A model generated the notes under the pieces. The model saw only the letters and a list, made by a program, of their open reading frames with translations, made no database searches and was not told where the DNA came from. Of a DNA stretch of 64,000 nucleotides, positions 7,893-64,000 are shown piece after piece. A program made the translations under genes and the position numbers. Position 1 is the stretch's first letter; each line of letters opens with the position of its first letter. The stretch comes from Spirochaetales bacterium (GTDB lineage Bacteria; Spirochaetota; Spirochaetia; UBA9216): the NCBI GenBank assembly GCA_016839055.1, contig JAEKNX010000001.1:303693-367692 (forward strand), written 5' to 3'.

Positions 7893-7979
7893 TATTATTA
7901 CAGATTATCTAATTTTTTACTTGTTATGATATAGTCTTACTAGTTAAATATGATATTTCACGATATTGAGAGGTTTTAT

Positions 7980-14796: not shown

Positions 14797-15475
14797 ATAC
14801 CTCTTGGAGTTTTCTTTGTATAAGCTCGGCGCCGAATACCTGCGAGAAATACTTTGCCGTAAGGCCTTTAAGCTGTTCAAAGTCAACTTCATGTCCAAGC
14901 TCTTTTTCGACTGATGTCACGCTGCGATCGGCAAGGCCGCAGGGAATAATCCAGTCAAAGTGTCTGAGGTTTGTTTTTACGTTAAATGCAAAGCCGTGGA
15001 AGCTTATCCATTTTCTAACCGCTATACCTATCGCAGTTATTTTTCGTGAATCGATGTAGACGCCGGTATATTTGCCTTTGTCGGACTTTGTCTCGATTCC
15101 GTATTCATTCTTCAGAAGACGTGAAAAGATTTCTTCGATGTTGGAAACATACTGGTGAAGGTCTCTGCCGAACTCTTCAAGCCTGAGGATGGGGTACCCG
15201 ACTATCTGTCCGGGGCCATGATAGGTCACATCTCCTCCGCGCTCGACATTAAATAATTCCACACCTTCACGGGCAAGGATTTCGTCAGAAACAAGAATGT
15301 TCTGTCTCTCGGCTCTTCGTCCCATGGTAAGAACTGGAGGATGCTCGACGAAGAAGAGGGTGTTATCCAGACGTCCGTCCTTAACCTTCAAAACGGTTTC
15401 TTTTTGAACCTTGAGTGCTTCCGAATATGCCATAAGTCCTAAATCAACAAAGTTTATCTTCATAAATTTCAACAT
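14780..15475 (-). CDS. lipB: Octanoyl-[ACP]:protein N-octanoyltransferase
   Basis: 231 aa. [19 protein letters not shown] and the Cys in [13 protein letters not shown] are diagnostic of LipB. It sits upstream of lipA. Confidence 0.85.
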
Positions 15476-15562
15476 AACATTTTTACTAAAAAATGAAAAT
15501 TACCCTTATGCTGTTTGCTTATAAGTGATTGGTTATTGTATAATAAACTGAAGGAGTAGCCT

Positions 15563-16846: not shown

Positions 16847-16855
16847 CGGGATAAT

Positions 16856-18838: not shown

Positions 18839-18846
18839 GGTTTGTA

Positions 18847-20814: not shown

Positions 20815-20832
20815 ACATACAGAGGCAATAGT

Positions 20833-24871: not shown

Positions 24872-24881
24872 GAGTTGATAG

Positions 24882-28052: not shown

Positions 28053-28107
28053 TGAACATCGGCTGTTCAACATCCTTCAGGCAGGTTAAAATAGCCTAGG
28101 AGGATAT

Positions 28108-30315
28108 ATGTACAACATTGAAGAATCCCTTAGTGACCAAATCCTGTCATTTAAAAGTTCGCGGCCGACCGTTATATTTACCGAAGCATTAGACCCCCGG
28201 CTTCTTGAAGCCGTTTGTTATTTAACCCGATTTCTGCGGCCCGTTCTTCTCGCGCCTGAAAAAGATGTCAGGAAGGTATTCAGCAGCGAGCTGAGTCACC
28301 TGGAAAAAAGTCGGATAGAATTTACAATTTCTGAATCTAGTTTCGTCGAAATAAGTAAAAACAAAGAACTTGTTGAAGAATTCGCGGCCGAATATCAGAA
28401 GACTCTCGAGGCCGAGGGTGAGAAGATCTCTCATGCTGATGCCGCTGGGAAAATGCTCGACCCCTGTTTGTTTGGAATCTTTGCCGTAAGGCTCGGTCAC
28501 GCCGACATGGTTGTCGGCGGAAGTACACATGAACCGGTCACGTATTTTCGCCATGTGCTGAAATTTCTGAAGAAGAAGCCGGTACAGTCGGAAACCGGGA
28601 TATTTGTTCTTCCTGATGATCATCCTGAAAACATTTATTCAAATAATATAATTGTCTTCGGAGATGTTGGTGTAAACGGTACAATGACTCCCGAAGTTCT
28701 GGCGAGAATAGCCGTAGATACCTGCTCAATCGCCAGGAATCTTTTTCCTGATAATGTTCTGCCGAGGATACATGGCGCCATTGTCTCGTACTCAAATCAC
28801 GGTTCGGATGAAGGTCCGTCACCGGACCTTGTAAAGAAGGCAACAAAGCTCGTTCCGGATCTCCTCAAGGAGTATGCTCAGGAGGATCCGAGGTACAGCA
28901 CCATATCAATCGAAGGTGAAATCAAGGCTAATGTAGCCCTCTCTGAGCGTTCGGCTATGTATTACAACAAGGAAAATGAGGATGGATGGAAGGGCCCTAC
29001 TAATGTAATCATCTGTCCTAACCTCGATATGGGAAATCTACTTTATCATCTTTACGCAACAAGATTCCCCGATGCGAAGAAATTTACAATCATTTCCGGG
29101 GTAGGATTCTCGGCGGTTGATCTGGCCAAAGACTGTTCCTCAGAGGATATTCGGCTTGGAGTCAAGGCGCCTATTCTAAATCTTCTTCAGAAAGAGGGAT
29201 GGACAAAGACCCGTCGTGATACCTTCTTCAGACGCTATAAGGTTCTGGCAATTAATCCTGGATCTACATCGACGAAAGTCAGCGTATATGAAGGTGATTA
29301 TGAGCTTTTCACCGAAGAGCTGCAGCATACGGCAGAAGATCTCGCGCCCTATGAGGGCAAGGCTGTTGCCGAGCAGTTTCAGTATCGAAAAGATATGATA
29401 ATGGAGTTCCTGTCTGAAAACGGATTGTCAATAGATGATCTCGACGCAGTCGCCGGACGCGGAGGCCTTGTTCGGCCGATAAAACACGGGACTTACCGGG
29501 TTAATCAGCGGATGCTTGATGACCTTAGGGCCGGCATAGGCGGCGAACATGCCTCAAACCTCGGAGCGCTTATTGCAAATGAGATGGTTGACGGCACTGA
29601 TCTCCCCGCCTTCATAATTGACCCCATCGTTGTCGATGAGGTGGAAGAGAAGGTCAAGATAACGGGCCTTAGTGAACTGAGGCGGTACATAATCAGCCAT
29701 TCCCTGAACCAGATAGCATCGGCAAAGCGGTATGCTGAGGAGCACGAAACCTTTTACGAGAATCTCAACATCATTGTCGCTCATATGGGAGGCGGAATAT
29801 CCGTCGGTGCTCATTATAAGGGCCGATATGTCGATGTCAACAATGCTCTAAACGGGGAAGGCCCCTTCTCACCACAGCGTTCGGGTTCACTGCCTATAGG
29901 GCCGCTCATAGATCTCTGTTTTTCCGGTAAGTACAGCCATGATGAGATGAAAAAGCTCAATAAGGGCAGGGGAGGCCTTATTAACCTTCTAGGTACAAAC
30001 GATCTGCGTGATGTTGAAAAGATGATAGACGAGGGAAATGAGTTTGCCGCCCTTGTTTTTGATGCTCTCGTATATCAGATGTCAAAGGAGATAAGTTCGC
30101 TTATACCCGCCTTCAATGGAGAGGCTCTGGATCAGGTTATTCTTACCGGTGGAATGGCGCGCTCTGAAAAACTGGTTGAAGGAATTACCGCTTCAATCAA
30201 ACTGCTTGGATGCGGAGTTACCGTTTATCCTGGGGAAAATGAGATGTATGCGCTGGCGAAAGGAACTGTCAGGGTTCTGCAGGGCAAGGAAGAGGCCAGG
30301 GAATACAATCCCTGA
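28108..30315 (+). CDS. Fused phosphate butyryl/acetyl-transferase (PTA_PTB) and butyrate/acyl kinase (Ptb-Buk fusion)
   Basis: 735 aa. The N-terminal ~330 aa are a PTA/PTB-family domain (..IVFGDVGVN..). The C-terminal ~360 aa start with the butyrate-kinase N-motif INPGSTSTKVSVYEG and carry ASKHP-family acetate/butyrate kinase motifs (IVAHMGGGISV). Confidence 0.8.
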   Translation: MYNIEESLSDQILSFKSSRPTVIFTEALDPRLLEAVCYLTRFLRPVLLAPEKDVRKVFSSELSHLEKSRIEFTISESSFVEISKNKELVEEFAAEYQKTLEAEGEKISHADAAGKMLDPCLFGIFAVRLGHADMVVGGSTHEPVTYFRHVLKFLKKKPVQSETGIFVLPDDHPENIYSNNIIVFGDVGVNGTMTPEVLARIAVDTCSIARNLFPDNVLPRIHGAIVSYSNHGSDEGPSPDLVKKATKLVPDLLKEYAQEDPRYSTISIEGEIKANVALSERSAMYYNKENEDGWKGPTNVIICPNLDMGNLLYHLYATRFPDAKKFTIISGVGFSAVDLAKDCSSEDIRLGVKAPILNLLQKEGWTKTRRDTFFRRYKVLAINPGSTSTKVSVYEGDYELFTEELQHTAEDLAPYEGKAVAEQFQYRKDMIMEFLSENGLSIDDLDAVAGRGGLVRPIKHGTYRVNQRMLDDLRAGIGGEHASNLGALIANEMVDGTDLPAFIIDPIVVDEVEEKVKITGLSELRRYIISHSLNQIASAKRYAEEHETFYENLNIIVAHMGGGISVGAHYKGRYVDVNNALNGEGPFSPQRSGSLPIGPLIDLCFSGKYSHDEMKKLNKGRGGLINLLGTNDLRDVEKMIDEGNEFAALVFDALVYQMSKEISSLIPAFNGEALDQVILTGGMARSEKLVEGITASIKLLGCGVTVYPGENEMYALAKGTVRVLQGKEEAREYNP

Positions 30316-30319
30316 GCCG

Positions 30320-31171
30320 TCAGTTTTCTTTATTGAGAAGCTGATCCAGTGAATCATGAGTGCGGTTGAGTGTCGAGGATATAGAGTTGGCATCCTGAAG
30401 TAGACGGAAAACATCTTCAAGTGACTTGAGCCCGTCAGTAATGGCTATCGTCTGTTCCGACACTCCTCCCTTTATCTCTGCCAGCATATAGCCGGAATTC
30501 TCGAGACTTTTTCTGCTCTTATCGAAGTCACGGCTTGTCTCAAGCATGTCCTTCTGGAAATTCTCCAGGAGGACAATAAGATCGTTGAAGCTGCCTCGTA
30601 CCTGCTTGAGCCCGGAGTTGAACTCGTTGATGGATCCGCTTATTGTATTCGCGAAATCCTGAGTCTGTACCGAAAGGCTCCTTATTTCCTTTGCAATGAT
30701 ATTAAATCCCTTGCCCGAGCTTCCTGCGCGTGCTGCCTCAATGGATGCGTTAATAGCAAGGATGTTTGTCTGCTGGGCAACATCATCAATTTCACGTGTC
30801 ATTTCACGCACCTGCGAGGATTTATCCTCGAGTGAAGAAAAAAGGCCGTGGAGCTTCTGTGATTCCTCAGTTGCGTGAGTTATTTCTTCGACATTCTTCT
30901 GAATAGCGGAATTAACAGAAGAGGTCGTCTGGATAATTTCACTCATGCTGCTGTAAATATTTTCGGTGTTTGTGCTTGTACTCTCTGAGGTTGCCCTTAT
31001 TTCTTCAAAACTCGCGACGATCGTCTCTAACGAATTATGAATATTTTGTATCTTTCTCTCTATTATGTTCATGGCACTCTGGGTCACTTTTGAGAGGATT
31101 ATCCCCTTATTATAGCCAATGGTAAGAAGAGACATCGTTTTTTTGAAGAAATTTGATTGTTTATCACTCAT
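30320..31171 (-). CDS. Soluble methyl-accepting chemotaxis protein (signalling domain only)
   Basis: 283 aa, no TM segment. Highly conserved MCP tip ILAINASIEAARAGSSGKGFNIIAKEIRSLS. Confidence 0.8.
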   Translation of the reverse strand: MSDKQSNFFKKTMSLLTIGYNKGIILSKVTQSAMNIIERKIQNIHNSLETIVASFEEIRATSESTSTNTENIYSSMSEIIQTTSSVNSAIQKNVEEITHATEESQKLHGLFSSLEDKSSQVREMTREIDDVAQQTNILAINASIEAARAGSSGKGFNIIAKEIRSLSVQTQDFANTISGSINEFNSGLKQVRGSFNDLIVLLENFQKDMLETSRDFDKSRKSLENSGYMLAEIKGGVSEQTIAITDGLKSLEDVFRLLQDANSISSTLNRTHDSLDQLLNKEN

Positions 31172-31176
31172 ATCCG

Positions 31177-31950
31177 TTACTCGTAAATCTCGTCGATTAT
31201 ATCAATTCCGCATTGAAGGCCTGCGAACCAGTCAAGAAATTTCTTTACATTTTCATCTTTGAATATTGCACCATGTTGGGGCGCAAGATACTTAATATTA
31301 AGACCGTCAAGTTTTGATATCCATTTCTTTGCAGCCTTGTTGGAGGACATGTATCTGCGGTGGAAGCCTTCCATGATCTTTCGATGCTCATCAAAGTCTT
31401 CAACAAAAATATACTGATTTCCCGTAGGAAAGACTGCAGCGCCTATGTCGCTAGTAAATAAAACACAGGAAACCGGATCAAAAAAACTATAGCAGCCTGC
31501 TGAATGCAGAAAATGAGCCGGAATCAGTTTCAAGTCAGTTGATCCGGCAAGTTTTAGACTTCCCCCGAGTCCTTCTATTCCGACTATTCTGTCTTGATTA
31601 ACTATTCCAAAGTGGGGAATGAATCTAAGCCAGAGCTCAGATATGTAGACCTTTGCCTTGGTGACCCCCAGCCAGAGAGCTATTCCGCTTGATACATCCG
31701 GATCCTGGTGGGAAAAAAAGATATTGTCGATCTTATCGAGATCAATATATCTGCTTACAAGGGCTATTACACGTGCAAAAAGATGTATTCCGCCAGGATC
31801 TACCAGGGTCCCGCGGCCGTTGCTTATAATCAGGTATTGATTAGTCTGGACGACGCCTTGTTCTTCGACTTCATCCGCGCCGAGCCAGATGAACTGATGC
31901 CCTCCATCCTGAAAGAGAATTTTACCGTTTATATCATTTGAGTTTATCAA
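31177..31950 (-). CDS. Metallo-beta-lactamase-fold diiron-type protein resembling the flavodiiron N-domain / ODP (oxygen-binding diiron protein) family
   Basis: 257 aa MBL fold. Metal-ligand pattern H-x-D-x-D (SHQDPDV) plus downstream H, D, H (PAHFLHS, TSDIG, APQHG), like FprA/ROO N-domains but without a flavodoxin domain. It is co-oriented 5 nt upstream of the soluble MCP, the arrangement described for ODP-MCP pairs. Confidence 0.55.
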   Translation of the reverse strand: MINSNDINGKILFQDGGHQFIWLGADEVEEQGVVQTNQYLIISNGRGTLVDPGGIHLFARVIALVSRYIDLDKIDNIFFSHQDPDVSSGIALWLGVTKAKVYISELWLRFIPHFGIVNQDRIVGIEGLGGSLKLAGSTDLKLIPAHFLHSAGCYSFFDPVSCVLFTSDIGAAVFPTGNQYIFVEDFDEHRKIMEGFHRRYMSSNKAAKKWISKLDGLNIKYLAPQHGAIFKDENVKKFLDWFAGLQCGIDIIDEIYE

Positions 31951-32073
31951 TGATTCCTCCTGAGTCTGCTATTCTTAATTAATAGTATATTTAGGGCTTT
32001 AGATCAAATGCATCCAAAAAAGCCGCGGGAATGTTGACTCCCGCGGCAGTGATATTTAAGAAATTACCGACAA

Positions 32074-42280: not shown

Positions 42281-44308
42281 ATGAAACTGCAGAACAAATT
42301 TTTAATCCCGATCCTGTCACTGATTATTGCCGGCATGGCGGCTCTGACCCTTGTCAGTTATATAACAGAAAAAGGAGAAATAGAGCATGCCGTCGAAGGT
42401 GAAATAGCTCAGGTTGCTGACGCGCTGCATAGGAATGTTGGAAATTATCTTAGTGAAGCTGATAATAATATTATTATTTTCGGTAATAGAAATCTATACA
42501 GGGCTTTATTTGAAAACGAAGGAGCATATGATGCTGCTGCCCTTTTAGCTGTCAATCAAACACTCTTTGATGTTCAAAAGGATAACCTCAAGTATGAGTT
42601 TTTTGCTGTAGCTGATAAAACCGGTATAGTTATTGCTTGCAGTGATGAGACCCAGGTAGGCAAGATGAATGTATCCGACAGGGAGTATTTTCAGACCTCG
42701 ATTGCCGGAAGGGGAGCTTCTTCGGATGTTCTTGAAAGCAAGATGACAGGGAAGCCTGTTATAGTTGTGTCAACTCCGATTATAGTAAACGGCAGTGTGA
42801 AAGGAATTTTCCTGGGATCTCTTGACCTGACTTCATTTAGTGAGATCTATGTTCTTCCTGTTAGGGTCGGCAATGGCGGTTATGCATATCTGCTAGATAG
42901 AAATTCAAATGTAATCGCTCATCCGGATTCAAGTCTTGTTCTTAAAGAAAATTTCAGTAATGAAGATTTTGGAAAGGCGATAATGAGGCAGGAAGATGGA
43001 TTTTTGCGTTATACCCACAATGGTATAGAAAAAATTGCGGCTTTCAGGACTGAAAAAATGAAGGGGTGGACTGCCGTAATAACCGCTAATGAAGATGATG
43101 TCTATGCCGGCGTAAATAAAATGAAGATGATGTCCATTATTCTGATTTTAGTATGCGTAGTCATTATCGGAATTATTGTATTTTTTATAGTACGCTCTAT
43201 TGTAATTCCTATTAAAAGGGCTGTTGGCTTTGCTCATCATGTTGCAAAGGGTGATCTGACAGTAACTGCAGATGATGCTTTTCTTAAGAGAAAGGATGAG
43301 ATCGGGGAACTGGCGAATTCACTGAATAATATGAAGAATAAGCTTCTCTTGGTAGTAAGTGATATTACAGCAGCTACAGATAATGTTGCATCAGGCAGTC
43401 AGCAGATGAGCGCGACGGCCCAACAGTTATCACAAGGAGCCACCGAACAGGCCGCATCCGCTGAAGAGGTCTCAGCATCAATGGAGCAAATGGGGGCCAA
43501 TATACAGCAGAATGCTGATAACGCCATGCAGACTGAGAAGATTGCTCAGCAGGCTGCGGAAGACGCAAACGATGGTGGAAAAGTTGTTCTTGAAACAGTA
43601 GACGCGATGAACGAGATTGCTTCAAAAATCGGAATAATTGAAGATATAGCTCGTAACACGAATCTGCTCGCCTTAAATGCAGCCATAGAAGCGGCAAGAG
43701 CCGGTGAGCATGGAAAAGGATTTGCAGTGGTTGCGGCCGAGGTACGGAAACTTGCAGAAAGAAGCCAGGAAGCAGCTAAAGAGATAAGTCAGCTTAGTGC
43801 TAAGAGTGTGGGTGTAGCCGATACTGCCGGGGCGAAACTGCAGAAAATTGTTCCTGATATCAGAAAGACAGCCGAGTTGGTCCAGGAGATAAGTGCGGCA
43901 AGTAATGAACAAAGAACTGGTGTCCAGCAGATAAACCAGGCGATTATGCAGCTTGACCAGGTTGTACAGCAGAATTCCGCTGCATCCGAAGAAATGGCCG
44001 CCATGGCTGAGGAATTATCCGGACAGGCTGAACAATTAAGAGCAACGATTAACTTTTTCAAGGTAAACTCATCTAATTCTTCAAAAAAGAATATAGAAAC
44101 CCCAAATACAAAGCAGCTTCCTGGTAATTTTGAACTATTACGCGGACGATTTGAAGTAAAAGATGAATCTTCAGAATCTACCAGGGGGAAAACAAGTAGA
44201 AAAACAGGTCTTGCTCCTGAAAACAGAATACCTCAAATGGCAATTGCTGCTTTCGGTGGAAACAATAGTGGCTCGAATGCTGTAGACACTGATTTTGAAG
44301 AATTTTAG
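42281..44308 (+). CDS. Transmembrane methyl-accepting chemotaxis protein with a periplasmic dCache_1-type sensor domain
   Basis: 675 aa. N-terminal TM, a ~280-aa periplasmic domain with double-Cache features, a second TM, HAMP, then the MCP signalling domain ([34 protein letters not shown]). Confidence 0.85.
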
Positions 44309-44324
44309 GAACAAGGATGAAGCT

Positions 44325-44828
44325 ATGAGTAATAGAATAATGACTCAGATAAATCAGTATTTAACTTTTTCCCTTGATGATGAGTAGTATGCAATCAATG
44401 TTACCAAGATTCGTGAGGTTCTTGAGTTTTCATCGGTAACTAAAGTTCCGCGAATGCCTGAATTCCTTCGGGGAATAATTAATCTCCGGGGAAGTGTTGT
44501 TCCTGTTGCCGATCTTAAAGTTAAATTTAAAATGTCTGATGTTAAGGCTGATATTAATACAAGAATTATTGTTACTGAGGTGAGTCTCAACGCCGGAGCT
44601 GTGATTGTGGGTATTCTCGTTGATTCAGTTCAGGAGGTTATAGATATACCTGCTGAACATATTGAGCCGACACCGAAATTCGGAACCGGTTTAAACACCG
44701 ATTTTATTGAGGGAATAGGAAAAAAGAATGATGATTTCATTATTATCCTGAATATTGATGCGGTTTTCAGCCTTGAAGAGATAAATACCTTCGGTGAAGA
44801 TTTAGTTGTCGAAGAAACATTAGTATAG
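44325..44828 (+). pseudogene. cheW: cheW (chemotaxis coupling protein) interrupted by an in-frame TAG at codon 21
   Basis: Reading from ATG 44325 gives MSNRIMTQINQYLTFSLDDE*YAINVTKIREVLEF...VPRMPEFLRGIINLRGSVVPV..., a canonical CheW. The TAG at 44385-44387 falls where CheW has the conserved E of the LxxEEYxI motif. The ORF track only reports the part after the stop (44454-44828). Confidence 0.65.
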
Positions 44829-44881: not shown

Positions 44882-46990
44882 ATGACAAGTTACGATATTA
44901 AAAAAAAAGGAGAAAAATTTGTTTCCGTTGCATCTATGACAAAATATATGCTGAATAAGGAAATGAAGGATAAGTCCTTTATTGAGAATATTCCGCATGC
45001 TATATATATTGTAGATATAGATGGGGAAATTATTTTTGCCAATAAACATTTTTGCAGCTTACTCGGATGTGAAAATAGTTTCCTGATTAATAAATCACTC
45101 TTTAATCTTGAAGATGAATCGGTGGAAGTCAGAATGTCATCTCATTTTGATAGTGCCATACAGAGTGGTTTCAGGTTTATTTCACACACCACTACTGTCT
45201 GTAATTATTGTGGAGAATTATTAAATGTTATCAATAACACCATCGTAGTAAAGAACAATGAAAAGGTGACGGCATTCCTTGGTGTTCTTATAGACATAAC
45301 CGAGAAAACTGAGATTGAAAAATCCGTAAGTGAAAATCAAAATAAATTAAGCAAAATACTTAAGCATATCTCTGAAGTAATTGCCATTGTCGACAGAAAG
45401 GGAATTATAAAATTCGAATCTGAATCAATTGAGTATCTGCATGGGTATAAACTTGATGAGACGGTAGGGTCGAGCTTTCTTGAAAGAGTTCACCCTGGTG
45501 ATAGAGAACTCCTGACTCAGAAGTTATTGGATTGTTCTCTCGCAAATGGTAATAGTGCATCTTCCGAGTACCGGTTTATACATAAAGATGGGAGCTTGCG
45601 TCATATGGAAGTCTTTTTGCAGAATATGTATGATGTGCCGTCTATTCAGGGGATTCTTGTCTATTTTAAGGACTTAACCGAGTTCGATTCAATAAAAAAC
45701 AGGGCTTACTATTTAGAGTTTAATGATCCACTAACAGGTTTACCTAATAAAGAGATGTTTACCGCGCGTCTGCGAAGGGAATTGAAACGTGCAGAAAGAA
45801 CTAAAAAAATATTTGCGGTAATGTCCATTAATCTGAATAAATTCAAATATATAAATGATCTGTATGGAACCCCTGCGGGTGATGAAGTTCTAATAAAGGT
45901 AGGAGCGAAATTAAAGTCGATATTTCGGGATGATGATCTTGTTTCCAGGTTTGAAGGTGATAAATTCCTTGTCCTTTTATCAGATATTGACGGTTCTCAG
46001 AGCGCGGAGATTATCTTTAAAAAGACAGCGGATGTTTTTTCCGAACCTTTGAGTGTAGGGTCTCATATGATAAGAATAACCGCAGGGATGGGAATTTGCT
46101 TCTATCCTGATGATGGAAATGATTCTGACCTTTTGATCAAGAACAGTGAAACTGCCATGTGTAATGCTAAAAACCGGCGCCTTACTTCATATTCACTTTT
46201 CGATGAAAAACGGAACAATGAGATGCTCTCCAGGATCAAGATTGAAAAAGAACTGCAGGACGCCATCGATTTAAAAGAATTCTGTGTTTACTATCAGCCC
46301 AAGGTTGATGTTTCTGGGACAATTATCGGGATGGAAGCCCTTCTTAGATGGCAGTCTCCGGTTCGGGGACTTGTCCCTCCAGGGCTTTTTATTCCAATTG
46401 CAGAAAAAAACGGGATGATTCTTCAGCTTGGAGAGCATGTATTGTATGAATCCTGTGTCCAGAACAGGAAATGGCAGGAAAAAGGACATAAGCCCATTCA
46501 GGTAGCGGTGAATATCTCTCCTTTTGAATTCAGCAGAGCAGATATAGTCAGTAATATTAAGGCTGTTTTAAAGGATACCGGGATTAATCCGCAATGGCTT
46601 GAGGTGGAGATTACCGAGAGTGGAATTATGGAAAATGAACAGGATTCTATTGAGAAGCTGGCTGAGATTCACAACATGAATGTCTCAATCGCTATAGACG
46701 ACTTTGGTACCGGTTATTCTTCACTCAGCAAGTTGAAGGATTATCCTGTTGATAAGCTGAAAATAGATAAATCATTTGTTGACAATCTTCCTGAGAATAT
46801 AAAGTCGGTAATTCTTGTGAAAAGCATGATCGGCTTGGCTCACAATCTTGGGTTTAAGGTCGTAACAGAGGGGGTTGAGACAAGAGCGCAATTTGATTAT
46901 TTACTTGAAAACGGTAGTGACCAGTTTCAGGGGTATTATTTCAGTAAGCCGGTAAATGCCGAAACTTTTGGAAATTTAATAGATAATTAG
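44882..46990 (+). CDS. PAS-PAS-GGDEF(degenerate)-EAL c-di-GMP phosphodiesterase-type signalling protein
   Basis: 702 aa. Two PAS domains. The GGDEF domain has the active-site motif reading SRFEGDKF instead of RxGGDEF. The EAL domain has QPKVDV...EALLRW, DDFGTGYSS and KIDKSFV motifs intact. Confidence 0.85.
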   Translation: MTSYDIKKKGEKFVSVASMTKYMLNKEMKDKSFIENIPHAIYIVDIDGEIIFANKHFCSLLGCENSFLINKSLFNLEDESVEVRMSSHFDSAIQSGFRFISHTTTVCNYCGELLNVINNTIVVKNNEKVTAFLGVLIDITEKTEIEKSVSENQNKLSKILKHISEVIAIVDRKGIIKFESESIEYLHGYKLDETVGSSFLERVHPGDRELLTQKLLDCSLANGNSASSEYRFIHKDGSLRHMEVFLQNMYDVPSIQGILVYFKDLTEFDSIKNRAYYLEFNDPLTGLPNKEMFTARLRRELKRAERTKKIFAVMSINLNKFKYINDLYGTPAGDEVLIKVGAKLKSIFRDDDLVSRFEGDKFLVLLSDIDGSQSAEIIFKKTADVFSEPLSVGSHMIRITAGMGICFYPDDGNDSDLLIKNSETAMCNAKNRRLTSYSLFDEKRNNEMLSRIKIEKELQDAIDLKEFCVYYQPKVDVSGTIIGMEALLRWQSPVRGLVPPGLFIPIAEKNGMILQLGEHVLYESCVQNRKWQEKGHKPIQVAVNISPFEFSRADIVSNIKAVLKDTGINPQWLEVEITESGIMENEQDSIEKLAEIHNMNVSIAIDDFGTGYSSLSKLKDYPVDKLKIDKSFVDNLPENIKSVILVKSMIGLAHNLGFKVVTEGVETRAQFDYLLENGSDQFQGYYFSKPVNAETFGNLIDN

Positions 46991-47460: not shown

Positions 47461-48927
47461 CTATAGCTGACTTTGAGATCCTACCCGGTATCTTAAATCG
47501 GGATTCTTTACGGCCGCCACCTCATCGGGCCTGCACACAGGTGTTGTAGCCGGAAAATTATGGAAAATTTTCGGTGAACTTTCCGCGAGATCAGCTAATT
47601 TTATCATCTCCTCAATGAAGTTATCGAGGGTTTCCTTTGATTCTGTCTCGGTAGGTTCGACCATGATAGCCTCCCTTACGTTAAGGGGAAAGTAGACTGT
47701 GGGCGGGTGTATGCCGCGGTCTATCAGCGCTTTGGCAAAATCCAGGGCTCTAACGCCTCCGTCGGCGAAGTTTTTTGCCGAGATGACGAACTCATGCAGG
47801 GTTCCGTCGGGAAAGGGAATGTTAAACCGCTCTCTGAGGCGGCTCTTTAGATAATTTGCGTTGAGTACCGCATTCTCACTCGCCTCTATGAGGCCGTCGC
47901 GTCCCATGTAGAGGATGTAGGCATAGGCGCGGAGCAGGATGCCGAAGTTGCCGTAGAAGGGCGATATGTAGCCTATGGAGGACGGTTTTTGGTATTCCAG
48001 GGCGTAGGTTCCGTCATCCCGCATTATTATTCTCGAGGTCGGGAGGAATTCGGCGAGTTCTTTAGTAACACCGACGGGGCCGGCGCCTGGGCCTCCTCCG
48101 CCGTGGGGTGTCGAGAAGGTCTTATGAAGGTTCAGGTGGACAATGTCGAAGCCGAGGTCTCCCGGCCTGGCCTTTCCGAGGATGGCATTCAGGTTTGCCC
48201 CGTCGTAATACATCAGAGCGCCAGATGAGTGCGCGAGCTCTGTTATCTCCTTTATATGAGGATTGAAGATGCCGAGGGTGTTCGGACAGGTAAGCATTAT
48301 GCCGGCGGTCTTCCCGTCGAGGGCCTTACGGTATTCCTCCATGTCCATGACGCCGTTTTTATCGGATTTTATAGTCTTAACCTTGTAGCCGGCAATGGCG
48401 GCACTCGCAGGGTTGGTTCCATGGCCTGAGTCCGGGATGATGATATACTCGCGTTTGTCGCCGCGGGACTTGTGCCAGGCGGCTATGAGCATTACGCCGG
48501 TGAGTTCTCCGTGAGCGCCTGCCATAGGCTGAGTAGTGAATGAATGCATCCCGGTAATCTCAGAGAGCTGTCTCTCGAGGTCGTAGATTACCTGCAGGGC
48601 TCCCTGCGTGAGTATTCCGCCTTTGACCAGCTGCGGCTGAAGAGGGTGTATAGATGCAAAGCTGTCGATGCAGGCTATCTTTTCGGTAAAGCGTGGATTG
48701 TACTTCATCGTGCAGGAACCGAGGGGGTAGAAGTTTGTGTCAATGCAGAAGTTAGTCCTGGACAGACAGGTGTAATGCCTTACAACCTCGGGTTCGGAGA
48801 TGTTCGGCAATCCAGTTGTTCCGGTTCTTAGGTATTGTTTCTCGAGAGCCGCGGCCTGTGGTACATCGCTGTGCGGCAGTTTTATTCCCCGTTTGTCTTC
48901 GCTGGATTTTTCAAATATCAGCTCCAT
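47461..48927 (-). CDS. gcvPB: Glycine dehydrogenase (decarboxylating) subunit 2
   Basis: 488 aa. PLP-binding region ...DIVHLNLHKTFSTPHGGGGPGAGPVG... typical of P-protein subunit 2. Overlaps the gcvPA stop by 10 nt. Confidence 0.9.
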   Translation of the reverse strand: MELIFEKSSEDKRGIKLPHSDVPQAAALEKQYLRTGTTGLPNISEPEVVRHYTCLSRTNFCIDTNFYPLGSCTMKYNPRFTEKIACIDSFASIHPLQPQLVKGGILTQGALQVIYDLERQLSEITGMHSFTTQPMAGAHGELTGVMLIAAWHKSRGDKREYIIIPDSGHGTNPASAAIAGYKVKTIKSDKNGVMDMEEYRKALDGKTAGIMLTCPNTLGIFNPHIKEITELAHSSGALMYYDGANLNAILGKARPGDLGFDIVHLNLHKTFSTPHGGGGPGAGPVGVTKELAEFLPTSRIIMRDDGTYALEYQKPSSIGYISPFYGNFGILLRAYAYILYMGRDGLIEASENAVLNANYLKSRLRERFNIPFPDGTLHEFVISAKNFADGGVRALDFAKALIDRGIHPPTVYFPLNVREAIMVEPTETESKETLDNFIEEMIKLADLAESSPKIFHNFPATTPVCRPDEVAAVKNPDLRYRVGSQSQL

Positions 48928-50258
48928 AATACATCCTCCAGCGCGTCGGTAAAACGTACAATCTCATGCTTGGTTCTTTTTTCGGTAACCGCTATTAGCA
49001 GGTAATTTTCCATGTTTTCGTAATACCTTCCAAGCGGAAAACCTGCTGCTATTCCGCGTTCTATCATCTTTCCGATAACTTCATTTGCGTTAACCGGCAG
49101 CTGTATTGTGAATTCATTGAAGGTCGGCGAGCTTCGCAGAACCTTAACCCCTTTAATCGCCGACAGGGAGTCTTTTGCGAACTCGGCCTTGTCGCGGCAG
49201 AGACTGGCAAGCTCTTTGAGCCCCTTGTCTCCGAGGAGGCTCATATAGAGCAGTGATCGGAGCGCGCAAAGCGACTGGTTAGAGCAGATGTTCGAGGTTG
49301 CCTTCTCTCGCCTTATATGCTGTTCCCTGGTCTGGAAGGTGAGAACATAGGCACGCCTGCCGTTCTTGTCGGTAGTGGCGCCGCAGATTCTGCCGGGCAT
49401 GTTCCTGAGAAACTCCTGTTTAGTGGCCATGAAGCCCAGGTAGGGACCGCCGAATGACAGGGGGATTCCCAGGCTCTGGCCTTCACCTGTTACGATATCG
49501 ACACCTATTTCTCCCGGCGGCTTCAGCATTCCGAGAGATATGGGATAGACACTGGAAATAACGAGGACCCCATTTTCATGGGCTTTTTTAACTATGTCTG
49601 AGTGATCATCCACTGTTCCGAAGAAGTTGGGATTCTGGAGAATTACCGCGGCGGTATCCTTGCCTAGGTGTTTGAAGAGCTCCCCTCGGTCACTCTGGCC
49701 GTGGCAGACAGGAACTTCGGTAAAATCAATGTCGAGATTATGAGTATAACTTCTAACCATCTTGCGGTAGATGGGGCTTACTCCGCCGTCCATCACTATG
49801 CGGTTCCGCTTTGTAATCCTGATGGCCATCATTGCAGCCTCATAGAGGGCCGTTCCGCCGTCATAGAGCGACGCGTTGGACGCGTCCATTCCGGTCAGGC
49901 TGCAGATGCAGCTCTGATATTCATAGATTGCCTGCAGGGTCCCCTGTGAAGCCTCGGGTTGATAGGGAGTGTAGGCGGTGAAAAACTCACCGCGGGAAGA
50001 GAGGCTGTCCACCGCTGCCGGAATATAGTGGTCGTAGAATCCGCCGCCTATAAAATAGGTCAGATTATTGACATTTTTGGCCCCCAGATTCCGAATTGCC
50101 TGCTCAACCTCAAACTCCGATTTCCCCTCAGGAAGATCGAAGGACTTAGCCCTCAGTTCCGGCGGGATTGAACTGAAAAGTTCATCAATCCTGCCGGAGC
50201 ATCCGACAGCCTTGAGCATTTCGTCTCTAGTATCATTTCCATTTGGAACATAACTCAT
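48918..50258 (-). CDS. gcvPA: Glycine dehydrogenase (decarboxylating) subunit 1
   Basis: About 446 aa from the internal Met (MSYVPNGNDTRDEMLKAVG), with P-protein subunit 1 motifs (FTAYTPYQPEASQG). Confidence 0.9.
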   Translation of the reverse strand: MSYVPNGNDTRDEMLKAVGCSGRIDELFSSIPPELRAKSFDLPEGKSEFEVEQAIRNLGAKNVNNLTYFIGGGFYDHYIPAAVDSLSSRGEFFTAYTPYQPEASQGTLQAIYEYQSCICSLTGMDASNASLYDGGTALYEAAMMAIRITKRNRIVMDGGVSPIYRKMVRSYTHNLDIDFTEVPVCHGQSDRGELFKHLGKDTAAVILQNPNFFGTVDDHSDIVKKAHENGVLVISSVYPISLGMLKPPGEIGVDIVTGEGQSLGIPLSFGGPYLGFMATKQEFLRNMPGRICGATTDKNGRRAYVLTFQTREQHIRREKATSNICSNQSLCALRSLLYMSLLGDKGLKELASLCRDKAEFAKDSLSAIKGVKVLRSSPTFNEFTIQLPVNANEVIGKMIERGIAAGFPLGRYYENMENYLLIAVTEKRTKHEIVRFTDALEDVLWS

Positions 50259-50344
50259 GAGTAAACCTCCGATTTCGAAAAAGAGCAACTCTGGATGTGA
50301 ATGCATTTTGTTCCAATAATTATTGCATTCATACAAAAATATCC

Positions 50345-50728
50345 TTAATCGAGACTGTCTATAAACTCCTGATATTCACCCGGGCTGAGAAGCGGTGTAA
50401 TCATTGCTCCGGTAATGCGAATCTTGAAGATCCAGCCGTCGGTGTAGGGCGATTCATTAATCAGTTCCGGTTCATCATCAAGGCGGGAATTTACTTCTAT
50501 TATTTCTCCTGCCGCCGGCGAATAGACTGAACTAACAGCCTTTACAGATTCAAGTGTTACCGGGCTGTCGCCGCCTGAGATGACCTGTCCGACTTCCGGC
50601 AGTTCCACAAAGGTGATATCGCCGAGTTCTTCCTGAGCATAGTCAGTTATTCCTATGATAACCATATTTTCGTCACTTACTTTTAACCATTCATGTTCCC
50701 TGGTATAGGATAATTCTTTCGGCAGCAT
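50345..50728 (-). CDS. gcvH: Glycine cleavage system H protein
   Basis: About 127 aa from the internal Met (MLPKELSYTREHEWLKV). Lipoyl-lysine motif LESVKAVSSVYSP. AAGGAG RBS in the 19-nt gap after gcvT. Confidence 0.9.
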   Translation of the reverse strand: MLPKELSYTREHEWLKVSDENMVIIGITDYAQEELGDITFVELPEVGQVISGGDSPVTLESVKAVSSVYSPAAGEIIEVNSRLDDEPELINESPYTDGWIFKIRITGAMITPLLSPGEYQEFIDSLD

Positions 50729-50747
50729 TTCACTCTCCTTTAGTCGT

Positions 50748-51833
50748 CTACCGTATAAAAGGCAGATCAATTATTACAGCATTTATTTTTGTATCATCTT
50801 TTCTGCATTCGATTATGGTACCGACGGCAGATATTGATTGATCAATCATGGCCAGTCCTATTCCCTTATTCAACATTGGTGAGAATACACCGCTGGTGAC
50901 GACTCCGGCAGGTTTATTATCTTTGTATATTGTAAAGCCTTCACGGGCCGTGCTCCGTCCCGCACAGAGGAAAGGAGTAAGAATCCGGGCGGGCTTATTT
51001 CTAATCTGTCTGATGAGGGCATCTTTTCCGATAAAATCTTTATTGAAATTAACAAAACGCTCGAGATTGGCCTCGATTGGGGTTATTTTATCAGTTATGT
51101 CATAACCGTAAAGTGGCAGCCCTTTCTCAAGTCTCAGTGAGTTCCGGGAACTAAGGCCGGCGGGCTTTACACTATCAACTTCAAGCAGAAGCTCCCAGAT
51201 TGTTACGGCCGATTCAGGCGGCATGAAAAACTCAAATCCCAATTCACCAGTGTAGCCCGTGGTACTTGCTGTCAACTTTATGCCCTCATATTCGAACTCA
51301 ATGAAGGCAAAGCGGTTCATCACAACGAACTCTATATCAGGGAAAACCGACGAAGCTGTTTTAAATGACAGGGGCCCCTGCAAATCGATCTTCGCCGTTT
51401 TATCGGAAATATTAGTAAATGAGGTTGAAGTGGAAAGATGGCTACAGATCCATTCAGCGTCATTAGTAATTCGTGAAGAGTTGACGACAATCATAAACCG
51501 GGTGCAGCTGTATTTAAAGATAATTAAATCATCTATAAAGAAGCCCTCGTCATTTAAAAGAAAACCGTACCGGCATCTTCCAGAACCAAGAGAGGCGAGT
51601 CCGCAGGAGAGAAGGTTTTCAAGATCTTTTTCAGCCTTTTTTCCTTCTATTATGAACTCACCCATGTGACAGATATCAAATATTGAGTTAGCAGATCTTG
51701 TGTGCAAGTGTTCTTTAAGGATGTTGCCGTACATTTCAGGCATTTCCCAGCCGGCGAAGGGCGCCAGCTTGGCATCTATTTTTTTATGGTTTTTATAAAG
51801 CGGAGTTCTATCGAGTTTTTTATTTACAGACAT
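50748..51833 (-). CDS. gcvT: Glycine cleavage system aminomethyltransferase (T protein)
   Basis: 361 aa. N-terminal LYKNHKKIDAKLAPFAGWEMPEMYG and the folate-binding fold motifs of GcvT. First gene of the gcvT-H-PA-PB operon. Confidence 0.9.
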   Translation of the reverse strand: MSVNKKLDRTPLYKNHKKIDAKLAPFAGWEMPEMYGNILKEHLHTRSANSIFDICHMGEFIIEGKKAEKDLENLLSCGLASLGSGRCRYGFLLNDEGFFIDDLIIFKYSCTRFMIVVNSSRITNDAEWICSHLSTSTSFTNISDKTAKIDLQGPLSFKTASSVFPDIEFVVMNRFAFIEFEYEGIKLTASTTGYTGELGFEFFMPPESAVTIWELLLEVDSVKPAGLSSRNSLRLEKGLPLYGYDITDKITPIEANLERFVNFNKDFIGKDALIRQIRNKPARILTPFLCAGRSTAREGFTIYKDNKPAGVVTSGVFSPMLNKGIGLAMIDQSISAVGTIIECRKDDTKINAVIIDLPFIR

Positions 51834-59005: not shown

Positions 59006-62000
59006 TCAGTCACTTTTGTGCCTGAGGGGTAATTCTCTTGCTGAGTCGGTAACAGCATCTATCTTTACAGCAAAACTTGTTCTTTTTTCTATGTCCGAAT
59101 CGGTAATAAGATGTACATCAAGAAGATTATCTGTTTTGTACCCGGTTCTAAGATAATTAATCCGTCCCAGGCAAAGGCTCCAGCCGTCAAGCCATAATAA
59201 AAGTGACTTTTTCTTCTCACAGGAGTCGTCAACATGAATTAGAAGATCAATATCGCTCATAGGACCGGCGTTTGCATTTTTCGTGCTTCCAAAAAGATAA
59301 AAAGCCTTCACTCCAAATTTCTCAACATCAATCGAATCTGCTATTTTCTCAGCCATGGCAAAACGCCAGCTCCAGTAATCTTCCTGTTTATCGGTATGAT
59401 GAGAATATATATCAACGGATGCAGAACTCTCCTGTGATGAAGGCGTAGCAAAATAAGCCAGAGCTTCATTAATATCTTCATTCATAAGAATCCTGAGGAT
59501 TTTTCCTTCTCTTTCTTTCATTACATCGGCTACATAGATTACATCTGATAAATCAGAATATTCAGGGATTAATTCTGACAAAATATTTCCTGAACCGGAA
59601 AGAAAGGTTTTGTTAAAAATGATATCGCTGTCATCCGGGTACAATGGGAGATATTTTATTGAAGATTCAACTAGGTCCTGAAAAAAATGTGTTCCAAATG
59701 AGAGTTCAGGAAGATAATCACCCTTTTTCTGTGCAATTTCAATAAGCATTGCCGTATTGTTAATGTCGGAATAGTTTACCTTGACACCGAGCTTAATATC
59801 CCCCCGGCTTCCCCATCTTCCAGGTCCCATTAAAATGAATCTGCGCTTGGGCAGAAGAGAGTTGATTCGGCTGATTGCCCTTCCTACTCTTTCGAGTTTT
59901 TCAAGAGTATTTAGCGAACTATATGCATCTGGATTAACATAGACAATATTAGTGATGTTATCTATGATTCCGTTGCTTACATGTTTTTTAGCATTGAAAA
60001 GTATACTATTTTCAGAAATATCTTTTGGAATGGGCTGAGGAATGCTGTCTAAAGAACCGGCCTGAGGTCTGCATTGAAGGAGGTAGATCTCTCCCCTGCA
60101 GTATGCAAATTCAATATCTACTTCAGTATGCATTTTGTCTTTGAGTTCATGAAGCATCTGTTTAATCCTGAAAATGAAATCCGTATTTTGAATCAGTGGT
60201 TCAAGTGAAAAAATTAGATCATCATTTTCGAAATCAAGTTGATAGATGTTTTTTGTAAACAGACAATTGTCGGAGAATACAGAAATAAGATTCACTATAT
60301 CAGGATATTGTGAACCATAGGTTCTCAAGATGTTTATCAGGTCGACAGATTCAAATGTATTTGTTTCAAGATTAATAACATCCATCATTTTAGGAGAGTA
60401 TCTAGCTGCTTCTAGAGGATCCGGATTTACCTTGATATCAGGGTTTCCTGGACACAATAAAACAGGATAGTCGTTACTGAGTCTGTCGACAGCCCGCGTG
60501 CCTAGTCCTGGTACTATTCGCAGAAGTCCGTCTTCTTTGTTGATTCTAGGTGACCAGCGATATTCATTTTGACTGAAGCCTACACCCGCGAACGAAGGAA
60601 AGAAATACTTGCCGACCTTTTCTCCTACAACTTCCTGAATAATTATTGCCATCTCCTCATGGAACTCCAGAAGACCATGCTCTTTACGGTACTCAATGGG
60701 GTCTGGTCCTATTGTCGACGCATAGACTTCCGCTACTGCATCCAGGACGGCTTTAAGCCGTTCTTCTTTCGTCCCTTGATTAGCGAGAAACAAACTTTTG
60801 TATTTGCCAGAGAATGCAGTACCGTACCTGTCTTCCAGAAGACTGGAACTTCTAATGATGATTGGCTTGTCCCCCAAATTATCTACAACCATCGACAGTC
60901 CATTGAGTAAATCAATAGGAAAGTTTGAGTTTTTAAAGACCTGAATAAAATTGGGATAATCCGCGCGTACTTCTTCAATGTCCTTGAACTTCTGTTCAAG
61001 CGCCTCTTCAAGATTATTGTAATAAATAAACTTAAGCATGAAATCGGATGAAATATACCATGTCGACGGTGTCATAACCTCTATTCCTGCATTTTTAAGA
61101 AACTGCTCCGCAATGAAGAGCCCGGCGCTTTTCCCGCCTAATTTCCCATGGCTGTTATTGGGATAAACCGAATGCTGTAAGATTGAATAAAAGTCGTCAA
61201 TATCAAGATAATCACGAGAAAATTTTATAAATTCTATCTGATCTGTAAAAAGCCTCTGTATGAAGAGCGAATTTATATTACATCTGGAATAAGAAGATAT
61301 TTCAAAATGGGAATTATTCAGATGATGATACTTTGATACAGCAGCAGAAATTTCTGACAGGGGAGTATCGGTATTTTCAAGAACCTGAACAAGAAATCCT
61401 ATTTTGTCTTCTTTGATCCATTTATTAAGATAGGCCAAAAGTTCGTCATCGCCAAGATTTCGGGAAGCAATTTTAAAGATATGCTGATAGAATTTATCAT
61501 GAATTGAAAAATCTATTTTAAGACTAGGAATATTTACATCTTGAGGAATCATAATATTATCACAACTTTTTTTCATTCCAAGACAACCCAGAATACTCTG
61601 GGCTTCTGCAATACCGAGAAAACATAGACGATTAAGCATCCTTCTGCAGATTCTGTTGAAAAGATTGCTGTCCATTTTTTCAACAAGCTCAAGGATAACC
61701 ATCCAGTCCGCTTTAACATTGCTGTTTATATCCTTGCGGGCTTGTTCCCACTGATCTAAGGAAATCTGAATATCACGCTGGAAGAGGTAATTTTCAATAC
61801 GTTCGGCTATTGAATTTAGAAGCTGTTGTTCTTCAGCAAGAAAAGGGGTGTGAAGGTGGTTATCCCTGTCAATGAAAAAAACTTCAAGACTGCCTACCAA
61901 TTCACCTTTAAGTTTCAATTCAGCTTTTTGAACCCATTTTGATTCAGTAAAATTATCAGATGCAAAAACATCATTTTGATATATTATTCTCACACAGCAG

Positions 62001-62176
62001 TTTTCCGGATACTGCCAGCCCATTGGTATTATTTCAATAAGTTTGGGTAAAACTTCCTTTATTTTCTGTTGGTCCTTATTTACAATTTCCTTGACTTTGT
62101 ATAAACATTGCAGCTCTTTAGCTCTTTCGTTGAGACTCTGCAGAAGATCCTGATTATCATTTCCTTGCTTTTTCAT
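59006..62176 (-). CDS. Large multidomain protein: unknown N-terminal region, PEP-synthase/PPDK N-terminal-like ATP-grasp nucleotide-binding domain, degenerate swivel-like block, and C-terminal Pol-beta-type nucleotidyltransferase domain
   Basis: 1056 aa. PPDK_N-like motifs GKLGGKSAGLFIAEQF, IIRSSSLLEDRYGTAFSGKYKS, PSFAGVGFSQNEY, EVDIEFAYCRGEIYLLQCRPQ. Then ILMGPGRWGS...FGTHFF, shared with the upstream paralogue and lacking the phospho-His. The C-terminal LFGSTKNANAGPMSDIDLLIHVDD is a GS-x10-DxD minimal NTase motif. Confidence 0.7.
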   Translation of the reverse strand: MKKQGNDNQDLLQSLNERAKELQCLYKVKEIVNKDQQKIKEVLPKLIEIIPMGWQYPENCCVRIIYQNDVFASDNFTESKWVQKAELKLKGELVGSLEVFFIDRDNHLHTPFLAEEQQLLNSIAERIENYLFQRDIQISLDQWEQARKDINSNVKADWMVILELVEKMDSNLFNRICRRMLNRLCFLGIAEAQSILGCLGMKKSCDNIMIPQDVNIPSLKIDFSIHDKFYQHIFKIASRNLGDDELLAYLNKWIKEDKIGFLVQVLENTDTPLSEISAAVSKYHHLNNSHFEISSYSRCNINSLFIQRLFTDQIEFIKFSRDYLDIDDFYSILQHSVYPNNSHGKLGGKSAGLFIAEQFLKNAGIEVMTPSTWYISSDFMLKFIYYNNLEEALEQKFKDIEEVRADYPNFIQVFKNSNFPIDLLNGLSMVVDNLGDKPIIIRSSSLLEDRYGTAFSGKYKSLFLANQGTKEERLKAVLDAVAEVYASTIGPDPIEYRKEHGLLEFHEEMAIIIQEVVGEKVGKYFFPSFAGVGFSQNEYRWSPRINKEDGLLRIVPGLGTRAVDRLSNDYPVLLCPGNPDIKVNPDPLEAARYSPKMMDVINLETNTFESVDLINILRTYGSQYPDIVNLISVFSDNCLFTKNIYQLDFENDDLIFSLEPLIQNTDFIFRIKQMLHELKDKMHTEVDIEFAYCRGEIYLLQCRPQAGSLDSIPQPIPKDISENSILFNAKKHVSNGIIDNITNIVYVNPDAYSSLNTLEKLERVGRAISRINSLLPKRRFILMGPGRWGSRGDIKLGVKVNYSDINNTAMLIEIAQKKGDYLPELSFGTHFFQDLVESSIKYLPLYPDDSDIIFNKTFLSGSGNILSELIPEYSDLSDVIYVADVMKEREGKILRILMNEDINEALAYFATPSSQESSASVDIYSHHTDKQEDYWSWRFAMAEKIADSIDVEKFGVKAFYLFGSTKNANAGPMSDIDLLIHVDDSCEKKKSLLLWLDGWSLCLGRINYLRTGYKTDNLLDVHLITDSDIEKRTSFAVKIDAVTDSARELPLRHKSD

Positions 62177-63879
62177 AGGACAATTATTCCTTTATGTTTC
62201 CTTCCATCTACTAATATTTTAATACTTTTGGGGGATCTTATGTGATTAAAAAACCGGCCGGAATGTATTACTTCCTGTTTTGAAATCCAGTCATAGTTCA
62301 GAAATCCCTTATCATTTGGATTCTGCTCATCTATGGATAAATATGGGAGTCCCGTATTGAGTATATTATGAAAAAAATGTGACCCCTGACTGAGTGCAGG
62401 ATTCATGTCCTCTTTTGTTGATTCAATAATGACACCGGCAGCTGAAATTTGGCTCCAGTTTACAGGAATCCCAAGTGCGGGGTCGGAGCTGCCCCAGCGT
62501 CCAAAGCCCGCTAAAATGTATTTACGTCCATTTTCAATAAAACATCTGTTTATTTTTTCAAGCTCAAGCGGAAATTCCGCGGTTCTCATGGGATCGAATT
62601 TCGAAGGCTCTATATATACAATATCATTTATATCTTCTATTACAGCATTGCCTAAGGCATTTTCTGAATAAACAATAATATCTTCTCTATCGAGATTGAA
62701 TATGGAAGAATCAAGGTTTACGAAGGAGGATTTCATCGGTCTAATCTGAAGAAATGCAAAATTTGCTTTTATATCGTTTGCTTGGTCAATATTAACCGCA
62801 AATTCAATTTCAATGTCGGAGCCGGATTTTTTTTTGAATTGATCAAGGATCTCTATAATCAATTCATTGAATTCAATAATTCGGCCTTTTAGCACCGGTG
62901 AAAAATCTATAAGCCTGAATCCGCTGGGTCGCAGTCCCATTTCAAGCCGGTCTGAAGAAATAGAGTATGTAGAACATAAATTACATAAACTATTGTCTCG
63001 CTCAAGTATTTTCAGGGGGAGCTTGACCATGTATTCCGTCTCAGAGAAAGGATTCTTTTTTTCCGGGGGATATAGATCTATGGCCCAGAATTCAGTCTGA
63101 CCGGCATCAAGAAGGTTTTTCATAGATGCCGGAGGAGGCACTTCCGGTTCGGCCGGATTGTAAAACCATTTTTTCCCACCGTCGACAATCGATTTACCAA
63201 GACCTGCTGCAAGTTCCACAACACCGTCCTCGGCTTTTCCATTACTGAAAGGGTAATAGTTAAACGATCTGCCGACGCCTGCGAAATCCGGATAAAAATA
63301 GTTATTTCTTTTCATGCCATGAACAGATTGGATAATTACTGCCATTTTTTCAATATTGATATCTATCCCCGCCGCATTGAAGCAATCAACAGAAGACTTA
63401 AACCATGTAGAGGCATATACGAATTTCACGGCATTAATTAAGTCTAAGAATCTGACATTCGGATCAGGGTTATTATTAGGAATCATTTTAGTCGCGAAAA
63501 CACCGGCGAAAGGTTTATTAAGAGAATCTTCAGTAAGACTGGAAGAGCGAATAGCTATGGGCCCCTTAAGGGAATTCGATAAAAGGCGAATTGCGCCAAT
63601 CAAGGTAACCGGAAACGAAGATTTCTGAAAAATGAGTGATAGCTGACTATCGGATTTATCCAGAAAAAGTTCCGGGCTTAGCTTGTTTTCTTTTATAAAT
63701 AGATCAAAAACATCAGAAAGCAGTATTGTCATAGGCGGAACACCTATTCTGATTCCTTTATAGATATATTCAGGAAAAATATCTTGAAGACAGGAGTTTA
63801 TTCTGATTAATCCGGAGCCTTTGCCTCCAGGAGAGCCGCTTCCTATAAATGATATTGGAGAAAAGTAATGGTTTTCCAA
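62173..63879 (-). CDS. PEP-synthase/PPDK N-terminal-like ATP-grasp protein (paralogue of the downstream gene, no NTase domain)
   Basis: 568 aa. SGSPGGKGSGLIRIN, IAIRSSSLTEDSLNKPFAGVFATK, PDFAGVGRSFNYY, DIEIEFAVN...FAFLQIRP are PPDK_N-like. The C-terminal ILAGFGRWGSSDPALGIPVNW...QGSHFF block matches the paralogue. TTG start with an AGGAG RBS. Its stop overlaps the start of the 1056-aa gene. Confidence 0.7.
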   Translation of the reverse strand: MENHYFSPISFIGSGSPGGKGSGLIRINSCLQDIFPEYIYKGIRIGVPPMTILLSDVFDLFIKENKLSPELFLDKSDSQLSLIFQKSSFPVTLIGAIRLLSNSLKGPIAIRSSSLTEDSLNKPFAGVFATKMIPNNNPDPNVRFLDLINAVKFVYASTWFKSSVDCFNAAGIDINIEKMAVIIQSVHGMKRNNYFYPDFAGVGRSFNYYPFSNGKAEDGVVELAAGLGKSIVDGGKKWFYNPAEPEVPPPASMKNLLDAGQTEFWAIDLYPPEKKNPFSETEYMVKLPLKILERDNSLCNLCSTYSISSDRLEMGLRPSGFRLIDFSPVLKGRIIEFNELIIEILDQFKKKSGSDIEIEFAVNIDQANDIKANFAFLQIRPMKSSFVNLDSSIFNLDREDIIVYSENALGNAVIEDINDIVYIEPSKFDPMRTAEFPLELEKINRCFIENGRKYILAGFGRWGSSDPALGIPVNWSQISAAGVIIESTKEDMNPALSQGSHFFHNILNTGLPYLSIDEQNPNDKGFLNYDWISKQEVIHSGRFFNHIRSPKSIKILVDGRKHKGIIVL

Positions 63880-64000
63880 TGTTCGCTCCTGAAAATGCCG
63901 GATTTATAACAATCCGGCTATATTTTAATTATACCCAACCCCGCTGCTTGCAAGCTTCCGCCACACGGGTTATTGAAATAATATAGGCGGAATCCCGCAT

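Follow-up and report, generated by a model that had tools for sequence, protein, structure and literature searches.

The cheW locus and its neighbours

The window, the whole 64-kb stretch of spirochaete DNA analysed here, carries three consecutive genes on the forward strand: a chemoreceptor (MCP) gene, a gene for the CheW adaptor, and a gene for a protein with GGDEF and EAL domains. The middle gene is interrupted by an in-frame TAG. The features of the locus are as follows.

42281..44308, + strand: dCache_1-HAMP-MCPsignal chemoreceptor, 675 aa, ending in TAG; 81% identical to the ortholog of the same length in locus L082
44309..44324, + strand: 16-nt spacer from the MCP stop to the first codon of cheW; contains an AAGGA ribosome-binding site; the layout matches that of the orthologous locus
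44325..44828, + strand: cheW frame of 167 codons, broken once (codon 21), as read from translation and Pfam; 77% identical to the intact orthologs P0001 and P0122
44382..44384, + strand: GAG, codon 20, the intact family-invariant Glu (Glu in 120 of 120 homologs)
44385..44387, + strand: premature in-frame TAG (amber), codon 21, next base T; aligns with Gln (CAA) of the nearest orthologs and with E28 of Escherichia coli CheW
44826..44828, + strand: TAG, the gene's own terminator
44882..46990, + strand: PAS-PAS-GGDEF-EAL protein, 702 aa, ending in TAG; ortholog at the same position in L082

An earlier note, made from the sequence, had described a cheW gene with a stop at codon 21, starting at ATG 44325 behind an AAGGA element. 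Translation of 44325-44828 bears this out: the stop at codon 21 is the single internal one, and the ribosome-binding site, the ATG and codons 1-20 are all preserved. The frame from this start to the terminator is complete except for the TAG. With the TAG read as X, the Pfam CheW model (PF01584) scores 122 bits (cut-off 23.5), and the alignment spans the interruption: residues 11-150 correspond to profile positions 1-136 of 138. The gene thus resembles other CheW adaptors in encoding one CheW domain, matched over its full length, and similarity to E. coli CheW extends over residues 10-153 (E = 2.9e-33). Solved examples of this family include the E. coli structures 2HO9 and 6S1K and the Thermotoga maritima structure 1K0S.

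The deposited sequence does contain the TAG, and no other locus compared has one like it. Only the window, one of 162 loci, has an interrupted cheW; the other 161 are intact. Among the homologs listed, the only close relatives of the window CheW are P0001 and P0122 (77% identical), which are identical to each other except for the called start and come from independent datasets: Logan SRR11790965 (locus L001) and JGI 3300035389 (locus L082). The comparison with orthologous cheW genes that the earlier note had proposed accordingly reaches a sister lineage sampled twice; in both loci cheW is intact, with CAA (Gln) at codon 21. A conspecific genome with the same allele was not found, the best CheW matches being 62% identical among genome contigs and 59% identical among metagenome contigs; exact-protein look-ups with the 124-aa ORF after the TAG, the MCP, P0002 and P0121 led to no such genome either.

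A probable accessory receptor-adaptor pair

The neighbourhood is conserved in part. At 108 of the 162 related loci, cheW is immediately preceded by an MCP gene, so in this respect the window follows the habit of CheW adaptors. The gene order in L082 (545-5223) is that of the window: a 675-aa dCache-HAMP-MCP protein, CheW, and a PAS-PAS-GGDEF-EAL protein. L001 has a GGDEF match at the position of the downstream gene. Among related loci, the downstream GGDEF/EAL gene is confined to L001 and L082; more distant CheW relatives retain the MCP gene upstream without it.

Three features set the window apart from CheW adaptors in general: the frame is broken at codon 21; there is no nearby cheA; and the PAS-GGDEF-EAL gene downstream is shared with the two closest relatives only. 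Neither a second CheW nor a CheA P5 domain is present in the 64-kb window. The earlier description of this gene as the only cheW of its MCP cluster holds within the window, where no other CheW-like sequence occurs. The unit looks like an accessory receptor-adaptor pair beside a c-di-GMP enzyme rather than a core che operon.

The Wsp-type system of Pseudomonas, in which an MCP, CheW and CheA control c-di-GMP through a GGDEF output protein, offers a comparison. As in Wsp, MCP and CheW genes stand beside a gene for a c-di-GMP-metabolising enzyme, the likeness here being one of gene adjacency alone. Unlike Wsp, the window contains no CheA, CheB/CheR or receiver-GGDEF protein, and the inputs of the GGDEF-EAL protein are PAS domains, not a receiver. 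A functional tie of receptor and adaptor to c-di-GMP turnover is possible, judging from gene order. A search of the literature for an MCP-CheW-GGDEF/EAL unit in spirochaetes found nothing relevant.

A second, short MCP gene lies 13 kb upstream of cheW and adjoins a gene of the ODP family. At 30320-31968 (- strand), an ODP-family di-iron protein with a metallo-beta-lactamase fold (PF19583, 239 bits) is encoded by a gene that overlaps the beginning of one for a 293-aa MCP consisting of the signalling domain only. We take this pair to resemble the ODP/soluble-chemoreceptor pair that senses oxygen and iron in Treponema denticola.

Codon 21 and its precursor

The earlier note held that the TAG replaces the conserved Glu of an N-terminal motif, through a change from GAG to TAG. 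Alignment corrects both points. The two glutamates of the "EE" motif, E27 and E28 in E. coli CheW, correspond to positions 20 and 21 of the window CheW, and the motif as such belongs to the E. coli protein. In the window, codon 20 encodes the invariant Glu and is intact. Codon 21 is variable: in 120 homologs the column holds V (94), I (16), Q (5), T (3), L (1) and M (1), and never Glu. Thus position 21 is Glu in E. coli, whereas in the subfamily of the window it is V, I or Q.

A single base change converts TAG to a sense codon for K, Q, E, S, W, L or Y. Among the residues seen in column 21 of the 120 homologs, only Gln and the single Leu are within that reach, and Gln (CAA) is the residue in the only close orthologs. 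CAG to TAG is therefore better supported than GAG to TAG, and a C-to-T transition in a Gln codon is the most parsimonious precursor event that the alignment suggests.

A probable recent lesion in an otherwise flawless gene

Apart from codon 21, cheW shows no sign of decay. Comparison with L082 reveals neither a frameshift nor a second stop within the gene. The dN/dS ratio between window and L082 (Nei-Gojobori) is 0.20 for cheW, close to those of the flanking MCP gene (0.19) and GGDEF-EAL gene (0.17). Codons 1-20, with about 10 synonymous sites, are too few for a separate dN/dS test. In alignment A2, 42 of 43 family-invariant columns are kept, the exception being the conservative replacement V51I, as are 25 of 29 nearly invariant residues. 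This retention argues that the lesion is young. Taken together, the comparisons indicate that purifying selection acted normally on cheW up to the very recent past, or else that the gene is unbroken in the real population.

The earlier note had left three options side by side: an inactivating mutation, a sequence error, and read-through or suppression. Of these, recent mutation is favoured, since the gene has no other lesion and no relaxed selection and the ortholog cluster is intact; suppression is disfavoured, TAG being an ordinary terminator in the window. A very recent nonsense mutation, or a segregating nonsense allele captured in the consensus of the metagenome-assembled genome, has probably knocked out this accessory cheW. 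Such a lesion resembles the ordinary amber alleles and young pseudogenes of bacteria: a single point change in a gene that is otherwise intact and free of secondary decay. It differs from them in one respect only, that in a metagenome-assembled source a nonsense allele and a consensus error are indistinguishable.

That difference leads to the most serious alternative, in which the TAG is an artefact of sequencing, assembly or consensus. The population would then carry a sense codon (CAG, Gln) and a working cheW, the base having been miscalled or a rare variant promoted. In the deposited sequence such an error would look identical to a nonsense allele, and the absence of secondary decay would be expected of an artefact, or of a decoded codon, just as much as of a very young mutation. 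This reading agrees with the intact start codon, ribosome-binding site and operon layout, and also with the retained invariant residues, the dN/dS shared with the neighbours, the metagenomic source, and the fact that none of the 161 related loci has such a lesion. Three points weigh on the other side. Single-base substitution errors are rare in a deep short-read consensus, which applies if the platform was short-read; genuine nonsense pseudogenes are common in bacterial genomes; and the 64 kb contain no further broken gene, which makes a generally error-prone assembly unlikely. An artefact is thus a good deal less probable than a nonsense mutation, and it carries more weight than any other competing explanation.

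TAG as a terminator

If the TAG were decoded, full-length CheW would be made, through near-cognate read-through, an amber-suppressor tRNA, or pyrrolysine machinery elsewhere in the genome. The preserved ribosome-binding site, ATG and codons 1-20 would suit this explanation. So would the ancestral Gln: near-cognate read-through of UAG usually inserts that amino acid. The search for suppressor and Pyl genes covered the 64-kb window alone, which leaves room for such machinery elsewhere in the genome. In addition, one Spirochaetes genome is reported to encode PylRS (PMC9630628).

The use of TAG in the window argues otherwise. The 43 Pfam-supported genes terminate with TAG (16), TGA (18) or TAA (9); cheW itself and the genes on either side of it are among those with TAG. 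Domain models run to C-termini that lie just before these TAGs: GlgC, 135 of 135 model positions; GerE, 57 of 57; EAL, 236 of 236; and GCV_T_C, 78 of 80. Efficient suppression would extend all sixteen of these products. Every stop in the window with an open frame on both sides was also listed. Besides the cheW codon, the only TAGs between long ORFs of the same frame are those at 5394 (between AFOR and a protein of unknown function), 13924 (LipA and a permease) and 16844 (GlgC and GlgB). Each lies between two separate, complete genes, the second of which starts 0-5 codons further on, and recoding of TAG throughout the window was therefore rejected. None of the other genes in the 64 kb has an internal TAG.

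The machinery and signals for decoding were likewise sought in the window. The earlier note had asked for amber-suppressor tRNA and Pyl genes; the 64 kb contain no suppressor tRNA, the sole tRNA being Asn-GTT, and Pfam identifies no Pyl-related or methylamine methyltransferase gene among the annotated ORFs. The 100 nt after the TAG hold no read-through RNA structure (z = -1.08; 25 of 200 shuffles are as stable), and Rfam gives no match. As far as the 64 kb shows, TAG is read as stop here.

Pyrrolysine decoding in bacteria is likewise a poor parallel. The cheW codon shares with it an in-frame UAG inside a conserved gene. Unlike the known cases, cheW does not encode a methylamine methyltransferase; the window lacks pyl genes and tRNA-Pyl; TAG is among its commonest terminators; and codon 21 is variable rather than catalytic, so that no special residue is called for. 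Suppression or recoding is disfavoured because TAG ends 16 of 43 genes naturally, the window has no suppressor tRNA, and no RNA structure follows the codon. Decoding of the TAG is accordingly improbable. The more elaborate proposal, that a decoded UAG acts as a conditional on/off translational gate on an MCP-CheW-c-di-GMP module, by pyrrolysine or suppressor machinery or by leaky read-through that restores Gln, is more improbable still.

Possible restart products and the public annotation

Two shortened ORFs begin beyond the TAG.

44394..44828, + strand: 144-aa "CheW", NCBI MBI9105417.1 (P0121); starts at ATC, two codons past the TAG, with no GGAG-type ribosome-binding site
44454..44828, + strand: 124-aa remnant ORF (P0002), from the first ATG past the TAG, with no ribosome-binding site

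The second is the truncated ORF of the program-made list that the earlier note had mentioned. Both belong to one 552,750-bp contig. The public record, named [quoted passage not shown], begins MNVTKIREV and carries no pseudogene mark. The NCBI model from ATC looks like an annotation artefact that masks the lesion, and it is likely that the public annotation conceals a pseudogene in this way.

Could ribosomes restart at ATC 44394 or ATG 44454 and yield a shortened, functional CheW? The NCBI listing of a 144-aa CheW as an ordinary gene favours the idea, and the ATC lies 6 nt past the TAG, near enough in principle for a restart. It is nevertheless very improbable, since genuine starts in the window are preceded at 6-10 nt by GGAG-type sites and neither of these codons is, ATC is a very weak start codon, and no homolog shows a natural loss of the N-terminus: the 120 listed are 160-207 aa long, and at none of the 161 related loci with a CheW-size ORF is the alignment shortened relative to the family model, all of them covering the N-terminal strands.

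The residues at stake are conserved ones. The 144-aa form loses the invariant Q11, L13, F15, L17 and E20; the 124-aa form loses A23, R30, E31, L33, T39, V41 and P42 as well. From the solved structures 2HO9 and 1K0S, we take these losses to remove one or two beta-strands at the start of the CheW fold. An AlphaFold model of the intact ortholog had a mean pLDDT of 36.8 and was not used for strand assignment.

Other loci in the window

Several further loci deserve mention in their own right. At 12914-13441 and 13438-13923 (- strand) lie two half-size permease-like genes of the ArsP_1 family (PF03773), of 161 aa and 175 aa. Both match the N-terminal half of the model; their start and stop overlap as ATGA, and a GGAG site lies upstream. 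The pair looks more like a permease divided between two genes than like a frameshift. As ATGA-coupled genes, they lend no support to the idea of a generally error-prone assembly, for which they had been the suspicious case.

Central metabolism is represented by several clusters. A compact glycogen cluster (15560-26348, + strand) encodes GlgC, a GlgB-like branching enzyme, a GDE_N/GDE_C debranching enzyme, glycogen phosphorylase, an amylase-like protein that includes a glucanotransferase domain, and GlgA; several adjacent genes share a frame and are parted by a stop and a few codons. A glycine cleavage operon (47461-51833, - strand) comprises GcvT, a 141-aa ORF (probably GcvH), GcvPA and GcvPB, with no glycine riboswitch at the Rfam gathering threshold. 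Lipoyl synthase and a lipoyl ligase or transferase of the LplA/B family are encoded 33 kb away, at 13924-15499 (- strand).

Other ORFs have composite architectures. A 741-aa ORF (28090-30315, + strand) has a phosphate acetyl/butyryl-transferase domain (PTA_PTB) at residues 22-354 and, at residues 544-708, the C-terminal portion of a domain of the acetate kinase family; two enzymes of successive pathway steps may be fused in it. In a 745-aa ORF (7944-10181, + strand), a pyridine nucleotide-disulphide oxidoreductase domain is followed by a DoxX membrane domain at the C-terminus. Adjacent proteins of 1061 aa and 576 aa (59006-63903, - strand) each contain a PPDK_N ATP-binding domain; the larger has in addition a C-terminal nucleotidyltransferase (NTP_transf_2/Polbeta), an unusual architecture.

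Expected consequences of the proposed nonsense change

For the favoured explanation, a recent nonsense mutation, the expected course is simple. Ribosomes from ATG 44325 would stop after 20 residues. Restart products from ATC 44394 or ATG 44454 would be poorly made, because neither codon has a ribosome-binding site, and, lacking the first one or two CheW beta-strands, would most likely be non-functional. The stretch of about 440 untranslated nucleotides could in turn have a polar effect and so lower expression of the GGDEF-EAL gene that follows. We infer, then, a biological change rather than an error, with loss of CheW function and perhaps polarity as its results.

Counts of che genes for this metagenome-assembled genome would overstate its functional complement, because the record of a 144-aa "CheW" hides the premature stop. 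The corrected precursor codon, Gln rather than a conserved Glu, is a useful by-product of the comparison. The biological weight of the lesion is small: one broken accessory adaptor gene in one uncultured spirochaete, an ordinary event of a known kind. Wider interest would attach to it only if the codon were decoded. If the allele is real, it illustrates on a small scale how a loss-of-function variant can segregate in a natural population.
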